Shown: in pieces, positions 1 through 9,758 of the stretch
How the letters are laid out: every line of letters starts with the position of its first letter
Numbering within the stretch: the first letter of the stretch is position 1
Source: a virus
Taxonomy: Duplodnaviria; Heunggongvirae; Uroviricota; Caudoviricetes
Length of the DNA: 9,758 nucleotides
Strand: one strand, 5' to 3'
IMG/VR virus record: IMGVR_UViG_2663762948_000006
Location: 1-9,758 of that record
Notes under the pieces: generated by a model
Told to the model about the DNA's origin: nothing
The model's input: only the letters and a program-made list of their open reading frames with translations
Database searches by the model: none
Program-made: the position numbers and the translations under genes

Positions 1-219
1 TTACATCCACATAATTTGCTGCCCTGATGGCAACGGGTGCGGCCTTACGGCGTGGACTTCTCCCGGCTTCACGATGTATCGCTGTACCGACTCATAAGTG
101 ATGAACGTGGCGCTGCAATTCACGTTCTGGCACTGATGATAACGCTCTTTTGTCGTGTCAGTGATATAGCGGCTTGTACGCGCATGTGCGGCATGCTGGC
201 ATAAAGGACAATGAAACAT
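1..219 (-). CDS. ogr: Ogr late-gene transcriptional activator (zinc-finger, P2 Ogr / P4 Delta family), 72 aa
   Basis: Translation from ATG at 217-219 gives MFHCPLCQHAAHARTSRYITDTTKERYHQCQNVNC..., with the CxxC...CxxxxC zinc-finger spacing and the 72-aa length of P2 Ogr. The 93-aa ORF in the track begins at an upstream TTG (280-282) and is probably an over-extension. SD-like GGAAGAGG lies about 8 nt upstream of the ATG on the minus strand. Confidence 0.9.
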   Translation of the reverse strand: MFHCPLCQHAAHARTSRYITDTTKERYHQCQNVNCSATFITYESVQRYIVKPGEVHAVRPHPLPSGQQIMWM

Positions 220-253
220 CGCGAGCACCTCTTCCGGTTTTGTTGATGGTGCC

Positions 254-282
254 ATTTTAGTTAATTTATCCTTACAAAACAA
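254..282 (-). promoter_or_regulatory. Putative sigma70 promoter for ogr (-35 TTGTTT, 17-bp spacer, -10 TAAAAT, read on minus strand)
   Basis: By eye: reverse complement of 277-282 is TTGTTT and of 254-259 is TAAAAT, 17 bp apart, about 35 nt upstream of the ogr ATG. No experimental support. Confidence 0.3.
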
Positions 283-300
283 ACAGATAAAACAAAAACA

Positions 301-1464
301 TCACTCATCATCTTCTGTTTCGTACTCCACATCAGAAAGCCTGACCTCAAGCTCTAAGGACGTCGTGAAGCCGCTATTATTCAGAAAATGTGTCACCTTA
401 GTGATTGTCCAGTCCTGCTCGTCTATGACGCGCTTAAAGCCAGACACTTTGACCGGTGTTTCCGTGTAAATATCTGCCCGACCGGTAGCCAGGCTGATGG
501 AGAACTCCGCAACGCCCCGTTGCAGTTTATCCCACTTCGCCTGAGCGGCGCGCATGGCCTGCGCTTTCGTGGCATATACCGTGGTCAGGGCAAAAACGTT
601 GTCAGCCTCACCGGCCATGTATTCACCTTCACGCGCTTCCGGTACTTTAGGCGCTTTCTTCTGCCTGACCGGTTTCGCTTTCGGGTGCTCCAGTGCGCGC
701 AGGTGTTTCTCTTTCTTTTTGCGTTTCAGTTTTACCTTCTGCTTTTGCGGCTTCGGGTCTTTAGTGTGTAGCCATTTTGCCGTTACACCGGTGTAGGCTC
801 CACGGTCAGCAATCGCAAAATGATGGCGGTCGCCGTCGCTGCGGGTTATGGTGACCTGCGGGATTTTTTTACCGCTGGCCGTCACTCCCTGCCCCGCTTT
901 GAGAAACAACAGTTTTCCCATTTTTACCGACACCTCACCGCCGTTGCGTTCTGCAAGACGGGTCAGGAATTTCGCATCAGACTCCTGCGACTGGTCGATG
1001 TGTGGAATTTTTATTCCGGCCAGTGACGGAGCGACACTGGCTTCCAGCCTGTTACGGGTGGCTATCGCCTTAACAATCGCACCGAGCGTGGTGTCATGCC
1101 AGGAGCCTTCCCGGCGGGAATTGAGCGTCCCGCGAAAATCTGCACTCCGGGCGCGGATGGTGACTACATCCGGTGCGCCCCGGTGTTCAACCTCATCAAC
1201 GGTAAATTTCCCTTTGCATACCAGGGCAAAACCTTTCCAGCCGATATACACCGTCAGGACAGCGCCACGAACCGGCAGCCCGACCTGCCCGTCGGCATCG
1301 TTCAGTTCAATATCAAGCTGGTCAGCCTCAAAGCCCCGGTTATCCGTCAGGGTCATGCTCATCAGACGGTCGCTGATATTGCCGGTAATATCCCTGCTGT
1401 CGAGCATCAGCATGTAATCCGGCGTCAGCGTACTGCCTGCATCAAATGTCAGCGCATCCAGCAT
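301..1464 (-). CDS. D: P2-type tail protein gpD (late control gene D), 387 aa
   Basis: 387-aa ORF, the length of P2 gpD, lying directly upstream of ogr as in P2 (T-U-D-ogr). The start ATG (1462-1464) overlaps the stop of the upstream gene as TAATG on the minus strand. Contains a Lys-rich basic segment. Confidence 0.88.
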   Translation of the reverse strand: MLDALTFDAGSTLTPDYMLMLDSRDITGNISDRLMSMTLTDNRGFEADQLDIELNDADGQVGLPVRGAVLTVYIGWKGFALVCKGKFTVDEVEHRGAPDVVTIRARSADFRGTLNSRREGSWHDTTLGAIVKAIATRNRLEASVAPSLAGIKIPHIDQSQESDAKFLTRLAERNGGEVSVKMGKLLFLKAGQGVTASGKKIPQVTITRSDGDRHHFAIADRGAYTGVTAKWLHTKDPKPQKQKVKLKRKKKEKHLRALEHPKAKPVRQKKAPKVPEAREGEYMAGEADNVFALTTVYATKAQAMRAAQAKWDKLQRGVAEFSISLATGRADIYTETPVKVSGFKRVIDEQDWTITKVTHFLNNSGFTTSLELEVRLSDVEYETEDDE

Positions 1465-1943
1465 TATCCCGCCCCCGTCATACCTGTGAATCTGGTCGCC
1501 ATACTGCCGGCCTTACCGATGAGCGATTCCGCCTGTTTACCGATATCGCCATAAAGCGCGGCCAGTGATTCATCAACGCGGGTGAGTGACAGCGTAAAAT
1601 CAATTTTCCGGGGTGTGCCGTCTGCAAAGAAAATACTCCCTGTTTCACTCACCCTGCTGATGACATACATGCCGTAAATCATGCCGGTGCCATCCAGCAA
1701 CGGCCACGCCCGCCCCTCCTCTGCCATCAGCCTGAGCGTGGTCATCGTCAGCTTGCCGCCGGTCAGTTCGGGATAAAGCACACCGGCCAGCGTGATGTTT
1801 TCCTCACCCACACCGAGAAACTGAAAGGCATCCCGTTTACCGATACGGGAATTTGACGGCCAGCGATAATCTGATTCACGCTGCATGGTCTGGTGTGGCA
1901 GCGTCTGGCGCATAAAAACAAACATACCTAACGCGAGCATCAT
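1464..1943 (-). CDS. U: P2-type tail protein gpU, 159 aa
   Basis: 159-aa ORF, the length of P2 gpU, between the T remnant and D on the same strand; its stop overlaps the D start. Confidence 0.85.
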   Translation of the reverse strand: MMLALGMFVFMRQTLPHQTMQRESDYRWPSNSRIGKRDAFQFLGVGEENITLAGVLYPELTGGKLTMTTLRLMAEEGRAWPLLDGTGMIYGMYVISRVSETGSIFFADGTPRKIDFTLSLTRVDESLAALYGDIGKQAESLIGKAGSMATRFTGMTGAG

Positions 1944-1957
1944 TTTTCGTCACCTCC

Positions 1958-2743
1958 TTAACCGTCATGCATCATGCTGGCACGGGCGCGCACACGTTTA
2001 TCCCGCTCGTATTTTTCGAGCGCATCCTGTAACTGGCGGTCAAGCTGTGTCCCCGGCGCAGTCCCCCCCGTCAGGCTGATGTGATATTCGTTTTTACTCT
2101 GGTCTACATAAGAGCGGCCAGCCGGTGCCGTGACCGGCTGATAAGCCTGATAGCCTGCATAAGAGCTGGTCGCCGGAATATAGTCACCGGTACCATACGT
2201 GGCGGTATGAGTTCTGGCGGCGGTCTGGTCAAGTGTGTCTGACTCTTTGTTGATAACACCGAGTTTTTCCAGTACCCAGTCAATACCACTGCGCAGTTTG
2301 TTGAACGCATTAAGCGGCAGCATCAACGCGTCAGCCAGTGCCTGCCCGAACATGACGCCCGTGTCACGGCAACGGTTCAGGGTGTCCTGGGTGGCTTTGA
2401 CCGGGGCAATCAGGTTTTTAAACCACTGCCACGCGGCCTGTAACTTTTCGCCCAGCCAGTCAAAAACCGGTTTAAGTGGCGTGAACAGTTCCCCCACCGG
2501 CGCAAATGCCGCTTTCAGCCCTTCAACCACACCACCAAAGAATGCGCTGACAGGCTCCCAGTATTTACGGATAAGCAACGCACCGGCGACAATGGCAGCC
2601 ACCACGGCCACAACCGGCCAGCTAATCGCCCCGATGGCCGTCATAACGGCACTGCCAACCGTCGTGAAGATTGCCCCCATTGCGCCTGCTGCCGCGATGA
2701 TGGCATTGATGCCGGTGATACCCATTCTGGTCGGGTGAACTGT
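1958..2743 (-). pseudogene. T: Tape-measure protein gpT, 3'-terminal remnant (about 255-261 codons of roughly 815); 5' part deleted
   Basis: The ORF ends 14 nt upstream of U as in P2 (T then U). The translation has a long Ala/Gly/Ile-rich hydrophobic segment and a C-terminal region typical of tape-measure proteins. The frame is closed by an in-frame stop at 2744-2746, so only the C-terminal third is present. First ATG is at 2723-2725. Confidence 0.8.
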
Positions 2744-3615
2744 TCAACCGGGGACGCGCCAGCGCCGCCGAACGCGTGGAAATCGACGTCAGTCATAACG
2801 CCCTTGCCGGAGGTCTTCTCTGTGCGGACGGCCAGTGGCGGCAGATTGTCACCATTGAGGACGCACTGAAAGGCGGCTGCACGCTGTTCGACATTGAGCA
2901 GCTCAAACGCGAAAACAGCGCCGACGATTTTAAAAACCTGTTCATGTGTGAATTTGTTGACGACAAGGCGTCGGTATTCCCGTTCGAGGAGCTGCAACGC
3001 TGCATGGTCGACACGCTGGAAGAATGGGAAGACTATGCGCCGTTTGCCGCCAATCCGTTCGGCTCCCGCCCGGTATGGATTGGTTACGACCCGTCACACC
3101 GTGGCGACAGCGCCGGATGCGTGGTGCTGGCACCGCCGGTGGTGGCCGGTGGCAAATTCAGAATACTTGAGCGTCACCAGTGGAAAGGCATGGACTTTGC
3201 CACCCAGGCGGAATCCATCCGCAAACTCACCAAAAAATATAACGTCGAATACATCGGTATTGATGCCACCGGCCTCGGTGTCGGCGTGTTCCAGCTCGTG
3301 CGCTCGTTCTATCCCGCCGCGCGCGACATCCGCTACACACCGGAAATGAAAACCGCAATGGTGCTCAAGGCAAAAGACGTTATCCGCCGTGGCTGTCTGG
3401 AATATGACGTCAGCGCCACCGACATCACCAGCTCGTTTATGGCTATCCGCAAGACCATGACCAGCAGCGGACGCAGCGCCACCTATGAGGCCAGCCGCAG
3501 CGAGGAAGCCAGCCACGCCGACCTCGCCTGGGCGACCATGCACGCTCTGTTAAATGAGCCACTCACCGCCGGTATCAGCACCCCGCTGACATCCACCATT
3601 CTGGAGTTTTACTGA
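2719..3615 (+). pseudogene. P: Terminase large subunit gpP, 3'-terminal remnant (nuclease-domain half); 5' half deleted
   Basis: The frame is open only from 2719 (in-frame stop at 2716-2718) and its first start codon is GTG at 2776. The translation carries terminase nuclease-domain-like motifs (WIGYDPSHRGDSAG, EYIGIDATGLGVG). Its stop overlaps the Q start (TGATG at 3613-3617), matching the P-Q order of P2. P2 gpP is about 590 aa; only about 280-300 codons remain. Confidence 0.8.
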
Positions 3616-4649
3616 TGAGCAAGAAAAAAGGGAAAACACCGCAACCTGCGGCAAAAAAAATGACCGCCAGCGCCCCGAAAATGGAGGCATTCACCTTTGG
3701 CGAACCGGTGCCGGTACTCGACCGCCGTGACATTCTGGATTACGTCGAATGCATCAGTAACGGCAGATGGTATGAGCCACCGGTCAGCTTTACCGGTCTG
3801 GCAAAAAGCCTGCGTGCTGCCGTGCATCACAGCTCCCCGATTTACGTCAAACGTAATATTCTGGCTTCAACGTTTATCCCGCATCCGTGGCTTTCCCAGC
3901 AGGATTTCAGCCGCTTTGTGCTGGATTTTCTGGTGTTCGGTAATGCGTTTCTGGAAAAGCGTTACAGCACCACCGGTAAGGTCATCAGACTGGAAACCTC
4001 ACCGGCAAAATATACCCGCCGTGGCGTGGAGGAGGATGTTTACTGGTGGGTGCCGTCCTTCAACGAGCCGACAGCCTTCGCGCCCGGCTCCGTGTTTCAC
4101 CTGCTGGAGCCGGATATTAATCAGGAGCTGTACGGCCTGCCGGAATATCTCAGCGCCCTTAACTCTGCCTGGCTGAATGAGTCGGCCACGCTGTTCCGCC
4201 GCAAGTATTACGAAAACGGCGCTCATGCCGGATATATCATGTACGTCACCGATGCCGTGCAGGATCGCAACGATATCGAAATGCTTCGCGAAAACATGGT
4301 CAAGTCGAAAGGCCGCAACAACTTTAAAAATCTGTTTCTCTATGCCCCACAGGGGAAAGCCGACGGTATTAAAATTATCCCCCTCAGTGAAGTGGCAACG
4401 AAGGACGATTTTTTTAATATCAAAAAAGCCAGCGCCGCTGACCTGCTGGACGCACACCGCATCCCCTTTCAGTTGATGGGCGGCAAGCCGGAGAACGTCG
4501 GATCGCTGGGTGATATTGAAAAAGTGGCAAAGGTCTTTGTCCGCAATGAGCTTATCCCGCTACAGGACAGAATTCGGGAAATAAACGGCTGGCTCGGCCA
4601 GGAGGTCATCCGCTTTAAAAACTATTCACTGGAGACTGACAACGGCTGA
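3615..4649 (+). CDS. Q: Portal (capsid vertex) protein gpQ, 344 aa
   Basis: 344-aa ORF, the length of P2 gpQ, immediately next to cos as in P2. GGAG lies 8 nt upstream of the ATG. Translationally coupled to the P remnant. Confidence 0.9.
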   Translation: MSKKKGKTPQPAAKKMTASAPKMEAFTFGEPVPVLDRRDILDYVECISNGRWYEPPVSFTGLAKSLRAAVHHSSPIYVKRNILASTFIPHPWLSQQDFSRFVLDFLVFGNAFLEKRYSTTGKVIRLETSPAKYTRRGVEEDVYWWVPSFNEPTAFAPGSVFHLLEPDINQELYGLPEYLSALNSAWLNESATLFRRKYYENGAHAGYIMYVTDAVQDRNDIEMLRENMVKSKGRNNFKNLFLYAPQGKADGIKIIPLSEVATKDDFFNIKKASAADLLDAHRIPFQLMGGKPENVGSLGDIEKVAKVFVRNELIPLQDRIREINGWLGQEVIRFKNYSLETDNG

Positions 4650-4654
4650 ACATC

Positions 4655-4676
4655 GCCGCCTGCGGGCGGCTTTTTT
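4655..4676 (+). terminator. Rho-independent terminator downstream of Q
   Basis: GCCGCC (4655-4660), loop TGCG, GGCGGC (4665-4670), followed by TTTTTT (4671-4676), starting 6 nt after the Q stop codon. Confidence 0.55.
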
Positions 4677-4818
4677 ACACCCCGCCATCACGCCCTCACA
4701 CGCTCATCACCGCACAAAAAATCCCGCAGACACACCAACGCCTCAACGGGCAGACTAAGCGCCGTCACGACGCGCTCAGACGCTGAAAAAATAAAATCAG
4801 CACCACCGCCAGCGCGCA

Positions 4819-4837
4819 GTGCTTTCCCCGCCTCGCC
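4819..4837. other. P2/P4-type cos site (19-nt cohesive-end sequence)
   Basis: Plus strand 4819-4837 is gtgctttccccgcctcgcc, whose reverse complement GGCGAGGCGGGGAAAGCAC is the 19-nt P2 cohesive end as I recall it. The flanking sequence toward Q also matches my recollection of the P2 left end. Confidence 0.72.
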
Positions 4838-5000
4838 CGCCCGCTTCATGGAGCGCTTTTAATGCAGTTGCAATAACACATCAAAACATCGTCAATACAG
4901 GCGATTATAAACAATAAAAAACGATCGCTGCCGCATGCAAAATCATGCACTAAATGCATGTATTGAAGGGAAATTAGGAACGTGCTCGTTTGGGTCTAAA

Positions 5001-5897
5001 CTATGATTTCGACACAACTATTTTCCCCAAATCAAAACTAAATTCGACATCCCCATTTACGATATTTTCATTTGTCACATGCTCATCAAAAAGGTCACTA
5101 ACATCATACCCCGACTGAAACACTGGGCTCATGATAGCCACGTCGGTGAATGGCTCTTTTTCATGTGTTATATAATATTGACCATAAACATTTGCAGATT
5201 CATCTGCATCATTAAGACTAAGGACTGTTTTTGCTTTGACTTCAGGCATCAGAGAAAAATCAATATTATTCAACAAACACAGTAAGATGCCTGCTATTGC
5301 TCTCCTGTTATTATCAAGCGGCATCAAGTCCACCCCTGGAATCTCCTTCCGAAGCAATATTTTCAGCTCATTAAATAAAGAGTCGAACTTAATTGCGTCA
5401 GAACAATTGAGTAACGACAAAGCTTCATTAATCATTCGCCCTTCATTGGAACCAATTTCTGATGTTAACTTACAAACACCATCATTAACAATATACGATT
5501 TTTTGTTATTAAGCTTCTTCCTCGCTGTAATTACCTGCCCCCCCTTTAAGTTTAACTTCTCCTTTAAAAACTCATCACTGAACATTCTTAATTGCAGTCT
5601 GATTAATGTAGGTAAGTATTTCGGGTATTCATTTAACTCTGGTTTAACAGCATGCTTGTCGCGTCCAAATTTTAAACTTAATAACAAATGATTCCTCAGC
5701 ATGATATCCTTTATCTCGCCTTGATCTCTCCGATGATTATGGGCAACAAAACTCCCAATTTCAAAAATACACTTGGGCGCACTCGGCAACTCACGGGCCG
5801 TAACAAAAAGAACATCAATATCACTATCAGTGAAACTCCCATCCTTTAATCTTCTCAACACTCTCTCTATTCTTGAGATTGCTTTACTTTTATTCAT
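5001..5897 (-). CDS. Hypothetical protein, 298 aa; low-GC cargo gene in the P2 tin/old hotspot position; function unknown
   Basis: Long uninterrupted ORF with an ATG start (5895-5897) in a visibly AT-rich block that contrasts with the surrounding P2 backbone. Lys/Asn/Ile-rich composition. I see no Walker A, HNH, HExxH or other recognisable catalytic motif. It lies between cos and the replication gene, where P2 carries tin and old. Confidence 0.7.
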   Translation of the reverse strand: MNKSKAISRIERVLRRLKDGSFTDSDIDVLFVTARELPSAPKCIFEIGSFVAHNHRRDQGEIKDIMLRNHLLLSLKFGRDKHAVKPELNEYPKYLPTLIRLQLRMFSDEFLKEKLNLKGGQVITARKKLNNKKSYIVNDGVCKLTSEIGSNEGRMINEALSLLNCSDAIKFDSLFNELKILLRKEIPGVDLMPLDNNRRAIAGILLCLLNNIDFSLMPEVKAKTVLSLNDADESANVYGQYYITHEKEPFTDVAIMSPVFQSGYDVSDLFDEHVTNENIVNGDVEFSFDLGKIVVSKS

Positions 5898-6177
5898 GAC
5901 ATTCTTTCAACCTTAATCAATATTTAATTTAAACAAACCATTCTCATACGCCAACCATACCTGTGACACCTGACAAACCAAATAAAAACAAAGGTACAGC
6001 GGATATTGGTATGTACAGCTATATTACACATAAACTCATGTTAGTAACATAAGATCTTCTTGTGAATATTTGTAATTTATTAGTTCACCAACATTAATCT
6101 TTCCAACCGTTATAAATCCAATCATATGCTGATACTCAAATGACGGCCAACTACCACCTCGCGCTGTTCGTTGTTCC

Positions 6178-6220
6178 CTCCAGCAGCACTGGAAGCATGT
6201 TTCAGTACTGCTGGGGTTTT
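6178..6220. terminator. Stem-loop (about 12-14 bp stem, one mismatch) followed by a T-run on the plus strand; possible bidirectional terminator
   Basis: CCAGCAGCACTG (6180-6191) pairs with CAGTACTGCTGG (6203-6214) around an 11-nt loop, then GGTTTT (6215-6220). It sits immediately after the stop of orf67 (6224) on the minus strand, but the U-tract is on the plus-strand side. Confidence 0.3.
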
Positions 6221-6223
6221 CTA

Positions 6224-6427
6224 TCAACAACGTGGTAGCAGTGCAATTTTAGACTGTTCTATATCGTTAAACCGCACGTAATTATCCCGGACTATTTCGG
6301 CACACCCGACCAACTCGTCGGGCGTCAGATTTTCGTTGACCATAATCTGCTGTAGACGGTGAACAATAGCCATCAGCTTGATATTTTTAGTGTTATGTTG
6401 CGGTATCTCGCCTGGTATTCTGTGCAT
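6224..6427 (-). CDS. Hypothetical small protein, 67 aa (from ATG at 6425-6427)
   Basis: The ATG overlaps the TAA stop of the upstream DUF3850-like gene (TAATG on minus strand), suggesting translational coupling. No recognisable motif. The track ORF (6224..6439) starts at an upstream GTG. Confidence 0.35.
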   Translation of the reverse strand: MHRIPGEIPQHNTKNIKLMAIVHRLQQIMVNENLTPDELVGCAEIVRDNYVRFNDIEQSKIALLPRC

Positions 6428-6882
6428 TATCCAAGCCACCCGTTTTGCTTTGCACGCTCAATCTGTTCATCTGAATAGTTCCATGCTCCATCCGTGGCAA
6501 CCATTGCCCCGCCAGACATCCCCGTCTCTGGTTCATACATAACAGCAAGGCCGAGCTGATGCATAATTTCATGATTAATTCTGAATACCAGACCACGCTC
6601 ACTAAGTTCTTTCCAGTTCACAATCTCATATGCGCCTGTATTAAGCTGCTCAATACTTAGCAAGACATAATCTTCCAGCCAGTCTGACAGGTCAGTAACA
6701 TCTGTTATCCGGGCTTCAACCTTTCGCCCCGTATACACACCCTGCACCCATTCATGCAAAATCAACGTGTCCCCGCGCTCATAATTACGGTCATTTTTCC
6801 GAAACTCTGCGCGTTTCTTTCCTTCCAGCACAAGGTCGAAATATTTTGCGTGCAGCTTTACCTCGTGAATTTTTGCCATCAT
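6427..6882 (-). CDS. DUF3850/ASCH-like (PUA-fold) domain protein with a C-terminal HExxH motif, about 151 aa
   Basis: The N-terminal region (KIHEVKLHAKYFDLVLEGKKRAEFRKNDRNYERGDTLILHEW...YTGR) resembles the DUF3850/ASCH-like family as I recall it. The C-terminal part contains HEIMH (6559-6573), an HExxH zinc-binding-like motif. The likely start is the ATGATG at 6877-6882, which overlaps the TGA stop of A (6879-6881); the track ORF extends 11 codons further upstream into A. Confidence 0.65.
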   Translation of the reverse strand: MMAKIHEVKLHAKYFDLVLEGKKRAEFRKNDRNYERGDTLILHEWVQGVYTGRKVEARITDVTDLSDWLEDYVLLSIEQLNTGAYEIVNWKELSERGLVFRINHEIMHQLGLAVMYEPETGMSGGAMVATDGAWNYSDEQIERAKQNGWLG

Positions 6883-8729
6883 GTCCACTCCATTACTGTT
6901 GAGAATCCCGGCCACTCATCAGCGACCGGATACGTGAATTTTTTCCCGTCATAATTTACAGTCGCGCCACGCGCCAGCGCCTCAAGCTCCCATCGCTGCG
7001 GCCTGATACCGTTCTGAGCAAGGTCAACGCGGATACGGGTGATTTGCATTCGTTCCGACCGGGTCAGTCTGGCAGATGGTGCAATTTCATGCGGTTTTAA
7101 CGGGCTTCCGTTTCTTTGCTGACGGTTTGGCGTTCTCATGTCGTATTTTAATGCGCCCCTGAGCGCCCTCACGACCTCCGGTTCATTCCATTCAATAACA
7201 CCGTCATCAACCAGATTAAGCACTGCTGCGGCGTGCTCAGAAGGTGTGGGAGCCGGTAACGAAGTATCACCACCGGTGAGCTTTCCACAGTTATTGACAG
7301 GACTCCGAGGCGCGGCGATGCCGCTTTTTAAAGTCAAAGGCTCAACGACCGGAACTTTCGGCACAATGCGCCAGTCCGTCGTTCTGGTGATATGAATATG
7401 ACGCGCGCCGAGATGCGGCGCGTAAATGCCGACCACTCTCTCGACTTCTTCCTCGTACTCGTTAACGTCATCCGACGGGCTACGGGCAACCCTGACAGTC
7501 TGACAATCGCGCGGGACATTTGCCCCACCCTGCGCGCTGATATACAACGCAAAATCACCACTGTCTGCGGCAGCGCGAGCAGCCTCGACGCGTTCGTCAA
7601 ACTCATCAGCAATACTGACGCCGCGAGGCAATTTGCGTAGTTCACGGTAAGCCCCCATTGTCGGCAGTCCAACCGTTTTAAATTGCGGGATGCGCCACGT
7701 TGACGCCCATGCGGTAACAGCCGCGGCAGTATCTTTAAGCGGCTTACCGGTATCGTTATCGAGCTGACCATCCAGTGCATAGCCGTCGATATTTTTTGAA
7801 ATGTATTTCGCGATATATCCCGCAGCACCGCCCCGGTTAAGGTGCTTTGCCTGAAAACGGTTTCGCGCGGCTCCTCTTTCGTCACCATCCTCTTTGAGCG
7901 CATAGCGACGCATGATTTCGATAATCTGGTTACGCTGGCGTGGATTACAAAAAAGCATCATATGCCAGTGCGGCGTTCCGTCGTGGTGTGGCTCGACGAC
8001 ACGCAAACCGTAGACCTGTAAATCATTATCCTTGAATGCCGTGCGCATCAGGCTCCAGATGCGGCAGAGATAACGCTGCGCATCCTTTGGATTAAATGCC
8101 TCATCGTTCCAGCCGTGATTAAGCTGAACGGTTTTACTTTCGCCTTTTCTGACCTGACGAGTCGGGTGATACTTTGACGGCGCGGTCAGCGTGATAAACA
8201 TCCCCACATCACCCTCTGCGGCGGCGTAACGCTCAATACCGGCAATGGTGTTCATCAGCTCCATCCGGCGAATTTCAGGATTAGAAATACTGCCCATCAC
8301 CTTACTGATAAGGTCGATGCGCTCGCCGGTTTCCCTGTTTTCAAGGTCACACGATTTAAGAAATTCCAGATTTGCCTGGCGGCGCGCACGCACATCACGA
8401 ATGGCGTGTTTACTGGCATACATCATGAAAAGCTGCGATGAGATACGGGCGGCAAACTTTTTCAGCTCCTTGTCATTCATTCCCGGCAGGCGCGCATAGT
8501 GGTCACGCTCTGCCAGAAACAGCAACGACGCGTCGGTGTTCATTTCATGGCGCTGATTCACACGCTCAATGCGCGGCCATAAACGACGCTGAAAAGTGGA
8601 TGTGAGAAAATAAAACCCGTGCACCGGGCTTTTATTACGCCGGATGTAGTCATAGCGTGAAGTAAACAGCGAGCGCAAAAAGTAAGGCAGGCGATTTATC
8701 GTGGATAACTCTATATAAAAATTACATTT
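6879..8729 (-). pseudogene. A: Rolling-circle replication initiator gpA, 5'-truncated (about 600-616 C-terminal codons of 761 retained)
   Basis: The translation contains the paired-tyrosine motif GYIAKYISK (Y288 and Y292 of the track ORF). P2 gpA is 761 aa with active-site tyrosines that I recall as Y450 and Y454; the offset of 162 plus 599 equals 761, so the C-terminus aligns exactly. The frame is closed by a stop at 8730-8732, the first start in frame is TTG (8676-8678) with no SD, and no B, cox or C genes lie upstream. Confidence 0.8.
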
Positions 8730-8755
8730 TCACCATTTGCCACCAAGATGGTGAA
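8729..8755. promoter_or_regulatory. Nested inverted repeat immediately upstream of int (possible operator or protein-binding site)
   Basis: TTCACCA (8729-8735) and TGGTGAA (8749-8755) are 7-bp inverted arms 13 bp apart; nested inside is CACCA-AGA-TGGTG (8741-8753). It lies 23 nt upstream of the int ATG within the A'/int junction region. Function is inferred only. Confidence 0.25.
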
Positions 8756-8777
8756 TACAGCGCCGGAGGGCTTTCTT

Positions 8778-9758
8778 ATGGCAATTAAGAAGCTCGATGA
8801 TGGTCGCTATGAAGTGGACATTAGACCTCGCGGTCGCGACGGAAAACGCATCCGCAGGAAATTTGAAAGAAAAGCTGAAGCACTAGCATTTGAGCGATAC
8901 ACAATCGCCAATGCCAGTCAGAAAGAATGGGGAGGCCAGCGAGCAGACCGCCGAACTTTGACAGAATTGCTCGACATCTGGTGGAAATACCACGGGCAAA
9001 ACCACGAGCATGGGACAAAAGAGTTTAATCATCTGCTCAAAACCATCAGCGGCATAGGTGATATACCAGTGAGTCGGATGAACAAAAGGGCTTTGATGGA
9101 TTATCGCTCCATGCGACTACGTGATGGCATCAGTGCTGCAACGATAAACCGCGACATGTACCGATTATCCGGCATGTTCACAAAATTAATTCAATTGGAT
9201 GAATTTTCCGGGCAACACCCAATTCACGGACTGCCGCCACTGACGGAGGCTAACCCTGAAATGACGTTCCTGGAAAAAGCAGAAATCGAAAAACTGCTAA
9301 ATGTTTTGACTGGTGATGACTTACTTGTCGCGCTTTTATGTCTGAGCACTGGAGGAAGGTGGACGGAAGTTGCCACGCTAAAACCAGCACAGATTACAAG
9401 TTGCAGGGTTACCTTCCTGAAAACCAAAAACGGTAAAAAGCGAACAGTGCCGATTTCTGAGGAACTGGAGAAAAAAGTTAAAGAGGAGGCCAGCGCCAAA
9501 TTGTTCAAGGTAGATTATGAGAAGTTTTGCGGGATTTTACGCAGAGTGAAACCTGATATACCTCCCAATCAGGCAACCCACATTCTGCGGCATACATTCG
9601 CAAGCCATTTCATGATGAATGGGGGCAACATAATTGCACTGCAACAGATTCTGGGGCATGCGAGCATTCAGCAGACAATGACCTATGCGCACCTTGCGCC
9701 TGACTACCTGCAGAACGCCGTCGCTCTGAATCCACTAAAAGGCGGAGTGACGTTATAA
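8778..9758 (+). CDS. int: Tyrosine recombinase, P2-type integrase (326 aa from ATG 8778; alternative start ATG 8748 gives 336 aa)
   Basis: N-terminus MAIKKLDDGRYEVDIRP... matches my recollection of P2-family Int. The C-terminal catalytic region carries the tyrosine-recombinase signature (HILRHTFASHFMMNGG...LGHASIQQTMTYAHL). GGAGGG lies 8 nt upstream of ATG 8778; the upstream ATG at 8748 has no SD. Confidence 0.9.
   Translation: MAIKKLDDGRYEVDIRPRGRDGKRIRRKFERKAEALAFERYTIANASQKEWGGQRADRRTLTELLDIWWKYHGQNHEHGTKEFNHLLKTISGIGDIPVSRMNKRALMDYRSMRLRDGISAATINRDMYRLSGMFTKLIQLDEFSGQHPIHGLPPLTEANPEMTFLEKAEIEKLLNVLTGDDLLVALLCLSTGGRWTEVATLKPAQITSCRVTFLKTKNGKKRTVPISEELEKKVKEEASAKLFKVDYEKFCGILRRVKPDIPPNQATHILRHTFASHFMMNGGNIIALQQILGHASIQQTMTYAHLAPDYLQNAVALNPLKGGVTL

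Follow-up and report, generated by a model that had tools for sequence, protein, structure and literature searches.

The stretch of DNA analysed here (the window, 9,758 nucleotides) holds a P2-like (Peduovirus) prophage in inverted orientation. From its left end it carries ogr (1-282), gpD (301-1464), gpU (1464-1943), a fragment of the tape-measure gene (1958-2725), the C-terminal half of the gene for the terminase gpP (2776-3615) and the portal gene gpQ (3615-4649, plus strand; Pfam Phage_portal, E = 3e-14, and 'phage portal protein' in the matching E. coli records). The right-hand part comprises a small gp92-like backbone gene of 71 residues (6224-6439, minus strand; phrog_11386, E = 4e-39), the counterpart of gp92 of Wphi and of WP_021517479 in E. 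coli; an orf91-like DUF3850/ASCH backbone gene (6427-6915, minus strand; Pfam DUF3850, E = 8e-18, with ASCH and DUF7415), the counterpart of Orf91 of P2; the replication gene gpA (6879-8678, minus strand; Pfam Phage_GPA, E = 3e-89), truncated and matching profile positions 107-321 only; and an integrase gene from 8748 to the window end. Comparison with L001 (strain 13P477T), an intact relative that also bears ORF298, shows that only a decayed remnant is left in the window: the whole part between mid-T and mid-P has been lost, gpA lacks about 294 bp internally at 8417-8420, homology stops at 8708, and B, cox and C are absent. Between the two backbone blocks lies an AT-rich island with an intact, AT-rich gene of 298 amino acids (ORF298; 5001-5897, minus strand), which we identified from the list of open reading frames, its homologs and its substitution pattern.

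A first-pass annotation had judged by eye that the sequence from about 4870 to 6180 is markedly more AT-rich than the P2 backbone on both sides, and the calculated values bear this out. GC content is 0.366 over that interval, compared with 0.552 to its left (1-4869) and 0.499 to its right (6181-9758), and in sliding windows of 300 bp it dips to 0.31-0.39 over approximately 4900-6200, with 0.50-0.62 in the left-hand flank and 0.45-0.58 in the right-hand one. An unconstrained two-state segmentation placed its best fit at 4856-6140 (GC 0.358 inside, 0.530 outside) with a log-likelihood ratio of 66.2 nats, a value matched by none of 600 block-shuffled sequences (200 each with blocks of 10, 100 and 300 bp, for which the maxima were 11.6, 27.1 and 50.1 nats, respectively). 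Both edges are sharp in 50-bp windows: GC content falls from 0.74 (4801-4850) to 0.38 (4851-4900) on the left, and rises from 0.38 (6101-6150) to 0.58 (6151-6200) on the right. Codon usage deviates in the same region. ORF298 (overall GC 0.369) has a third-position GC content of 0.368, compared with 0.48-0.71 for ten other genes; its codon likelihood under backbone usage is the lowest (-1.254, the others ranging from -0.97 to -1.19); and the codons TTA, AGA and ATA are three to seven times commoner in it than in the backbone. GC content and codon usage resembling those of the flanking genes, which the annotation had named as the outcome that would count against an island, are thus not what we found.

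To the left of the island lies the cos site. A P2-type cohesive-end 19-mer, the reverse complement of GGCGAGGCGGGGAAAGCAC, is read directly from the sequence at 4819-4837; linear P2-like phage records begin or end at this 19-mer, and positions 4819-4866 align with what is annotated in P2 (NC_001895) as 'cosR; right cohesive end'. The flank of cos on the cargo side (4838-4878) belongs to the backbone, being conserved in five of five aligned loci irrespective of cargo; the BLAST alignments with other P2-like phages break off at 4872-4878. Beyond this point, an AT-rich spacer (4879-4933) is variable, with no conservation in alignments of loci that differ in cargo, and it separates the cos flank from a second conserved cos-side element at 4934-4968 (GCATGCAAAATCATGCACTAAATGCATG), which we refer to as the ATGCA-box. 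The motif of this element, ATGCAANNNNATGCA, occurs once in the window (chance expectation 0.01). Ten P2-like loci that differ in cargo each hold a single copy, and P2 has it too, a short distance upstream of where old-tin starts; we therefore assign the element to the backbone, outside the cassette, and restrict the strictly cassette-specific DNA to approximately 4969-6149. A hairpin at 4960-4944 was considered as a terminator for ORF298 and rejected, given that the element is conserved whatever the cargo and that the hairpin is not significantly stable (z about 0).

On the right, homology to other P2-like phages resumes at 6149/6150, and the backbone junction (6150-6223, minus strand) includes a conserved stem-loop at 6180-6214, downstream of the gp92-like gene, with a minimum free energy of -24.3 kcal/mol (z = -5.7). 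The window, APEC O78, vB_YpM_50 and Wphi, each with a different cargo, can be aligned as far as '...GCGAGGYGKTAGTT' and diverge from there, just past this stem-loop. (The sole Rfam match in a scan of 4600-6500 was a sub-threshold hit to mir-15 on the same hairpin, which we regard as spurious.) Of the interval that the first-pass annotation had given for the island, the AT-rich character and most of the length therefore stand, whereas the right edge moves inward from 6180 to 6149/6150 and the first part, 4870-4968, proves to be partly conserved cos-flank backbone.

Between the right junction and the start of ORF298 lies a cassette-specific AT-rich region of about 250 bp (5898-6149, minus strand; GC about 0.3) with promoter-like sites; its sigma-70-like matches (6150-6121 and 6066-6038, both on the minus strand) do not exceed the number expected by chance. 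In E. coli, ORF298 is never found without this region (25 genomes at 80% coverage or more); at homologous loci in Klebsiella, homology stops at 5898 and the upstream region is not conserved. One sub-segment (6035-6116, minus strand) has a wider distribution: it occurs at about 79% identity in 16 further E. coli genomes (for example, APEC O78), directly upstream of an unrelated two-gene cargo encoding proteins of 243 and 260 residues. Because this segment is common to a different cargo, we regard recombination within the locus as nested and mosaic. An open reading frame of 64 codons at 6036-6230 straddles the junction between backbone and cassette, is without family support and was rejected as a gene.

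Comparison with related phages locates the island in an exchangeable slot. The flanks of the window are 92-94% identical to those of Yersinia phage vB_YpM_50 and of Wphi, up to 4878 and from 6149/6150, and between these breakpoints the window has no similarity to either phage; neither breakpoint is more than about 15 bp away from a GC change point, and approximately 1.18 kb of the island is missing from related phages that share its flanks. In the same slot vB_YpM_50 carries a gene for a 197-residue hypothetical protein, Wphi a cytosine methylase gene and two further open reading frames, P2 the genes tin and old, STYP1 and vB_YpM_22 a gene for a Fic protein, and APEC O78 two genes, so that at least five alternative cargoes have been seen there. 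These too are AT-rich (GC 0.39 in Wphi and 0.37 in vB_YpM_50). Of 5,426 complete E. coli genomes, 2,158 contain the flanks but only 25 the whole island. The cassette thus extends from about 4879 (strictly, about 4969) to 6149 and consists of ORF298 and its 250 bp of AT-rich upstream DNA. With gpQ and cos on one side and the orf91-like gene and gpA on the other, its position is that of the P2-like cos-proximal accessory hotspot, and we conclude with good confidence that the island is the variable cargo of this hotspot. The suggestion that it was acquired as a discrete cassette is upheld by this comparison of P2-like loci, in which phages with near-identical flanks do not all carry the sequence, and no finding speaks against it.

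The hotspot is well documented. Rousset et al. (2022; PMC9122126) described 1,650 arrangements between gpA and gpQ in P2-like phages and found old-tin plus three of eight cloned systems from the hotspot to be active against phages; Moura de Sousa et al. (2026; PMC13586616) confirmed the hotspot in 1,511 P2 elements. The E. coli form of the ORF298 protein, WP_001043197, is 99% identical to that encoded in the window and is listed in Table S5 of the earlier study as 'DUF3850/ASCH + hypothetical + hypothetical' (PMC9122126). The variable cargo of this hotspot is already published, and the present arrangement already stands in a published supplementary table. The protein is absent from the full table of evaluated systems (Table S2; PMC9122126), and none of the papers searched for the accession WP_001043197 names it.

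Among the closest known systems is the old-tin ('TO') region of P2, in the same slot. The ORF298 cassette resembles it in lying between cos and orf91/gpA, in being AT-rich relative to the backbone and in varying between otherwise near-identical phages. The two differ in orientation, ORF298 being transcribed towards cos, and old and tin away from it, and in their products. The ORF298 protein has no relationship to Tin (probability 0.2% and E = 0.33 when its family profile was compared with P2 Tin by hhalign), has neither the ATPase nor the TOPRIM domain of Old, and is 298 residues long rather than 586.

ORF298 is the sole open reading frame within the cassette that is backed as a gene. Compared with a 73%-identical homolog from Klebsiella, it has a dN/dS of 0.106, a value that indicates a real gene under purifying selection. 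In E. coli, the identity of the 25 copies is 99.4% or more and every one is annotated as protein-coding, with the product 'hypothetical protein', and the length of about 297 residues is kept across 34 clusters from Escherichia, Citrobacter, Klebsiella, Salmonella, Cronobacter, Serratia and Dickeya. Since dN/dS and the homologs back the minus-strand frame, we dismissed two antisense open reading frames on the plus strand within it (5236-5691 and 5079-5285) as artefacts of AT-rich sequence.

The protein matches phrog_29586 ('unknown function', E = 5e-210) and has no match in Pfam or NCBIfam. Searches against PADLOC v2 (5,027 models) gave no match at E ≤ 1, and no match was consistent among 38 relatives; relaxing the Pfam threshold to E ≤ 10 for six family members gave only scattered, weak and inconsistent matches (for example, EAD10 at E = 0.016 in one of them). 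Signal peptide-like and secretion-related domain matches were also lacking. The AlphaFold model is confident (pLDDT 91.3); it has no fold neighbour in the PDB or BFVD, and the family profile found nothing among PDB sequences. Conservation within the family is centred on the N-terminal 60-100 residues, where R35, A52, H53 and G60 are invariant; F22, E46, R57, P92 and L208 are at least 90% conserved. We considered an abortive-infection protein of the HEPN type (AbiD/AbiF-like) and rejected it: the conserved polar columns are R35, E46, H53 and R57, with R35 and H53 18 residues apart, which gives no conserved R-x(4-6)-H pair and an H-x3-R arrangement instead, and there are neither Pfam Abi/HEPN matches in the family nor a helical-bundle nuclease among the fold matches.

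A profile search of 1.84 billion representative sequences recovered approximately 430 relatives (clusters at 50% identity), nearly all of 290-340 residues. In prophages of both the P2 and the 186 type, from Klebsiella, Dickeya and others, homologs with 45-75% identity occupy the same slot in the same orientation; the order in those loci is gpA, ORF, cos, with the ORF facing the portal gene. ORF298 itself is intact in three independently deleted prophage remnants (that in the window, L002 and L007). The distant members that we sampled (about 20% identity) likewise stand alone as accessory genes. One follows the tail-fibre genes in a siphovirus prophage of Klebsiella and another the lysis genes in a Pseudomonas prophage; a third lies counter-oriented within the early region of a prophage that is common in P. 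aeruginosa, and a fourth beside the integrase gene of a podovirus-like element. Others are on 5.3-kb and 11-kb plasmids of Psychrobacter and Acinetobacter; on a metagenomic contig, adjoining genes for a type I methylase (HsdM) and YaaC; on another such contig, 2.6 kb from a DUF4238 gene; and, in one case, among housekeeping genes. All of these sampled members are AT-rich relative to their surroundings. No family member that was tried matches any of 50,697 sequenced phage isolates. A further profile search, of the database clustered at 90%, returned a Psychrobacter clade on short contigs only.

Independently transcribed, AT-rich accessory genes at the ends of prophages or at the borders of their modules are known as 'morons'. 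ORF298 resembles them in standing alone with its own upstream region, in its deviating composition, in its family's place at module borders of several phage types and in being kept in defective prophages. The class is descriptive and silent on function, and for ORF298 the independent transcription is a prediction.

Our best guess, offered tentatively, is that ORF298 may encode a single-protein anti-phage factor acting by exclusion or abortive infection. This reading follows from the published record of the slot, from the recurrence of the gene as solo cargo of prophages and plasmids, and from its retention in defective prophages; the support is positional, and homology contributes nothing to it. 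Close parallels are the validated single-gene systems from the same hotspot, for example the DUF4238 protein, which protects against T7 (PMC9122126). Both are solo genes of the same slot that encode proteins of about 300-350 residues with no recognisable catalytic domain; they differ in that ORF298 has no sequence similarity to DUF4238 and that its own activity is putative. If the anti-phage reading holds, the conserved N-terminal module (R35, E46, H53, R57 and G60) would form the functional core, and the divergent, beta-rich C-terminal part (about 213-298) would set specificity. It might further be supposed, with somewhat greater reserve, that ORF298 founds a candidate new family of single-protein anti-phage factors, which across Gammaproteobacteria is the solo cargo of small plasmids and of prophages of the P2/186-like, lambdoid and podovirus-like kinds and escapes the present defence-finding tools. 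Against the anti-phage reading stand the lack of any match to a defence model, of any enzymatic or sensor domain and of any fold neighbour, the non-defence cargo that the hotspot is known to carry, and the one member that lies among housekeeping genes. The sampled neighbourhoods are, moreover, not clearly defence-enriched: about ten contexts were sampled, the majority of them accessory slots of prophages, and when ten neighbours of distant relatives were compared with PADLOC, most were unmatched, and only a weak match to DUF4238 and generic matches to ATPase N-terminal regions were found, for which reason we claim no enrichment in defence islands.

A rather more doubtful possibility, but one to be taken seriously, is that ORF298 is cargo of another kind, serving either lysogenic conversion (regulation, stress or virulence) or the phage itself (anti-defence, or help with replication or packaging). 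The hotspot has a record of such cargo, with partition systems in about one-quarter of P2-like phages and a cytolethal distending toxin in about 2% (PMC9122126), and about half of P2 elements are without a recognisable defence system (PMC13586616); the failure of ORF298 and its relatives to match any defence model, and the mostly non-defence neighbours of the distant relatives (housekeeping genes in one case), fit this alternative. Set against it are the occurrence of the gene as a solo accessory in at least four unrelated types of temperate phage and in small plasmids, and the absence of every member tried from the sequenced phage isolates; and the lack of signal peptide-like and secretion-related matches argues in the same direction. 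The retention of ORF298 in remnants that are unable to make virions counts against a role in the lytic cycle.

The island itself adds nothing new: the P2 cos-proximal hotspot is published, and this is a classic example of it. What is added here is a concrete candidate: an intact cargo gene under purifying selection, whose product has a confident model that is an orphan in fold space, and which belongs to a family carried solo by many unrelated temperate phages and small plasmids and recognised by no annotation or defence library. Should the anti-phage reading prove true, ORF298 would represent a new single-gene system; if not, the family still counts among the more widely distributed kinds of uncharacterised prophage cargo in Enterobacterales and Pseudomonas.

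As to how the cassette came to occupy the slot, we propose that related phages swap their cargo through recombination in the conserved DNA on either side and not by transposition. ORF298 would be transcribed from a putative promoter of its own in the upstream region (where, as noted above, candidate sites do not exceed chance), the stem-loop at 6180-6214 may insulate the replication operon from it, and the gene would be expressed in the lysogen. We favour flank recombination over insertion because there are no direct repeats at the boundaries. Such repeats were sought, following a suggestion in the first-pass annotation, with a 7-nucleotide seed over 4600-6500, and none of significance was found; nor do inverted repeats flank the island, and there is no target-site duplication. 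It is accordingly very improbable that a mobile element or site-specific cassette integration (an insertion sequence, a transposon or an integron-like system) brought the island in. The cassette is without a transposase or recombinase, and the segment at 6035-6116 that it has in common with another cargo marks breakpoints of the nested, mosaic kind that is typical of recombination. That four loci with different cargoes share the right junction to the nucleotide might seem to speak for site-specific insertion; an identical junction is the end of the shared backbone, however, and is therefore expected under flank recombination too. A copy of IS903B has inserted in the island region in two E. coli genomes, which is the other observation that could be read in favour of a mobile element.

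Finally, that the low GC content reflects not a foreign origin but a local functional constraint on the DNA beside cos or the mutational decay of a dead prophage, with ORF298 itself decaying or spurious, is scarcely credible: the leftmost 100 bp or so (4870-4968) are indeed cos-side backbone with a conserved AT-rich motif, and the prophage in the window is a remnant, but for most of the island this explanation is refuted by the absence of about 1.18 kb from related phages with the same flanks and by the low dN/dS (about 0.1) of ORF298. The constant length and confident predicted fold of the ORF298 protein also tell against it, as does the finding that intact prophages and other genera carry the gene with no higher GC content.

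The prophage in the window is a remnant (positions 1958-3615 and 8417-8748). At approximately positions 2719-2776 a fragment of T, the tape-measure gene, runs into terminase gpP, of which the C-terminal half is left, and this join removes nearly all of the morphogenesis genes. The gpA gene carries an internal deletion of approximately 294 bp, with a 4-nt microhomology at 8417-8420, and position 8708 marks the end of its homology to intact relatives. The window lacks B, cox, and C, and an integrase gene comes directly afterwards (from 8748). The exact arrangement of the window was found, in one piece, in none of the 5,426 complete E. coli genomes of our collection.

Intact relatives contain a second accessory locus among their tail genes, seen at 2101-5445 of L001 (the related prophage of E. 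coli 13P477T) and at 15569-16885 of L007 (another of the loci compared here). In L001 a SIR2-family gene and a DUF6602 gene occupy this locus, flanked by the genes for the tail sheath and for tail-fibre assembly; L007 likewise has a DUF6602 gene. The locus matches the second of the published P2 hotspots, and the part of the phage that holds it is deleted in the window.

Conserved elements were found toward both borders of the cassette that carries the 298-aa cargo gene (ORF298). On the cos side, approximately 100-130 bp from cos, lies a conserved ATGCA-box (GCATGCAAAATCATGCACTAAATGCATG, positions 4934-4968), which occurs as a single copy in ten P2-like loci independently of the type of cargo and is also found in P2 itself, where the mapped transcription starts of old-tin lie just downstream of it. 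The ATGCA-box does not form a stable hairpin; it could be a protein-binding site associated with cos or a promoter element directed into the cargo. On the opposite side, the gp92-like gene is closely followed by a conserved and strong stem-loop (6180-6214; -24.3 kcal/mol, z = -5.7), which sits immediately ahead of the cargo start and has no U-run behind it; it may act on the replication operon as an insulator or terminator, or be a landmark of recombination. The sole Rfam match at the stem-loop, to mir-15, falls below threshold and was rejected as spurious.

Between the stem-loop and ORF298 lies an 80-bp piece of the gene's upstream region (6035-6116) that a further 16 E. coli genomes, APEC O78 and IHE3034 among them, also carry, at approximately 79% identity. 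In these genomes the copy immediately precedes an unrelated cargo of two genes (243 and 260 aa) in the same slot. A promoter-like match (TTCACA-17-TAACAT) overlaps this segment, which could be either a regulatory module common to both cargoes or a relic of recombination. A 64-aa ORF on the minus strand (6036-6230), with a TTG start, spans both the cassette junction (6149/6150) and the conserved hairpin; no family support was found for it, and it is probably not a gene.

Prophages commonly carry members of the ORF298 family, and PHROG includes a family (29586) for ORF298; neither the window's own protein nor the two distant members tried (P0051 and P0063) occur in any of 50,697 sequenced phage isolates. 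Either the carrier phages are rarely isolated, or many copies reside in defective prophages. In the Pantoea homolog P0210, residues 7-36, within the conserved N-terminal helix, weakly match the Pfam model EAD10 (effector-associated domain 10) at a sub-threshold E = 0.016; the match is confined to this one member and was not reproduced in others.

Some Klebsiella loci have a 183-aa ORF with no Pfam match immediately upstream of their ORF298 homolog (1258-1809 in L004 and 341-892 in L005, both metagenome contigs); the corresponding gap of approximately 950 bp in L003, a further homolog-bearing locus, contains no called gene. This ORF could be an occasional partner gene of the homolog or a separate cargo. 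Two E. coli genomes (NZ_AP045796.1 and NZ_CP104595.1; matches H8 and H12) carry an IS903B copy inserted next to ORF298, within the region corresponding to positions 4600-6500.
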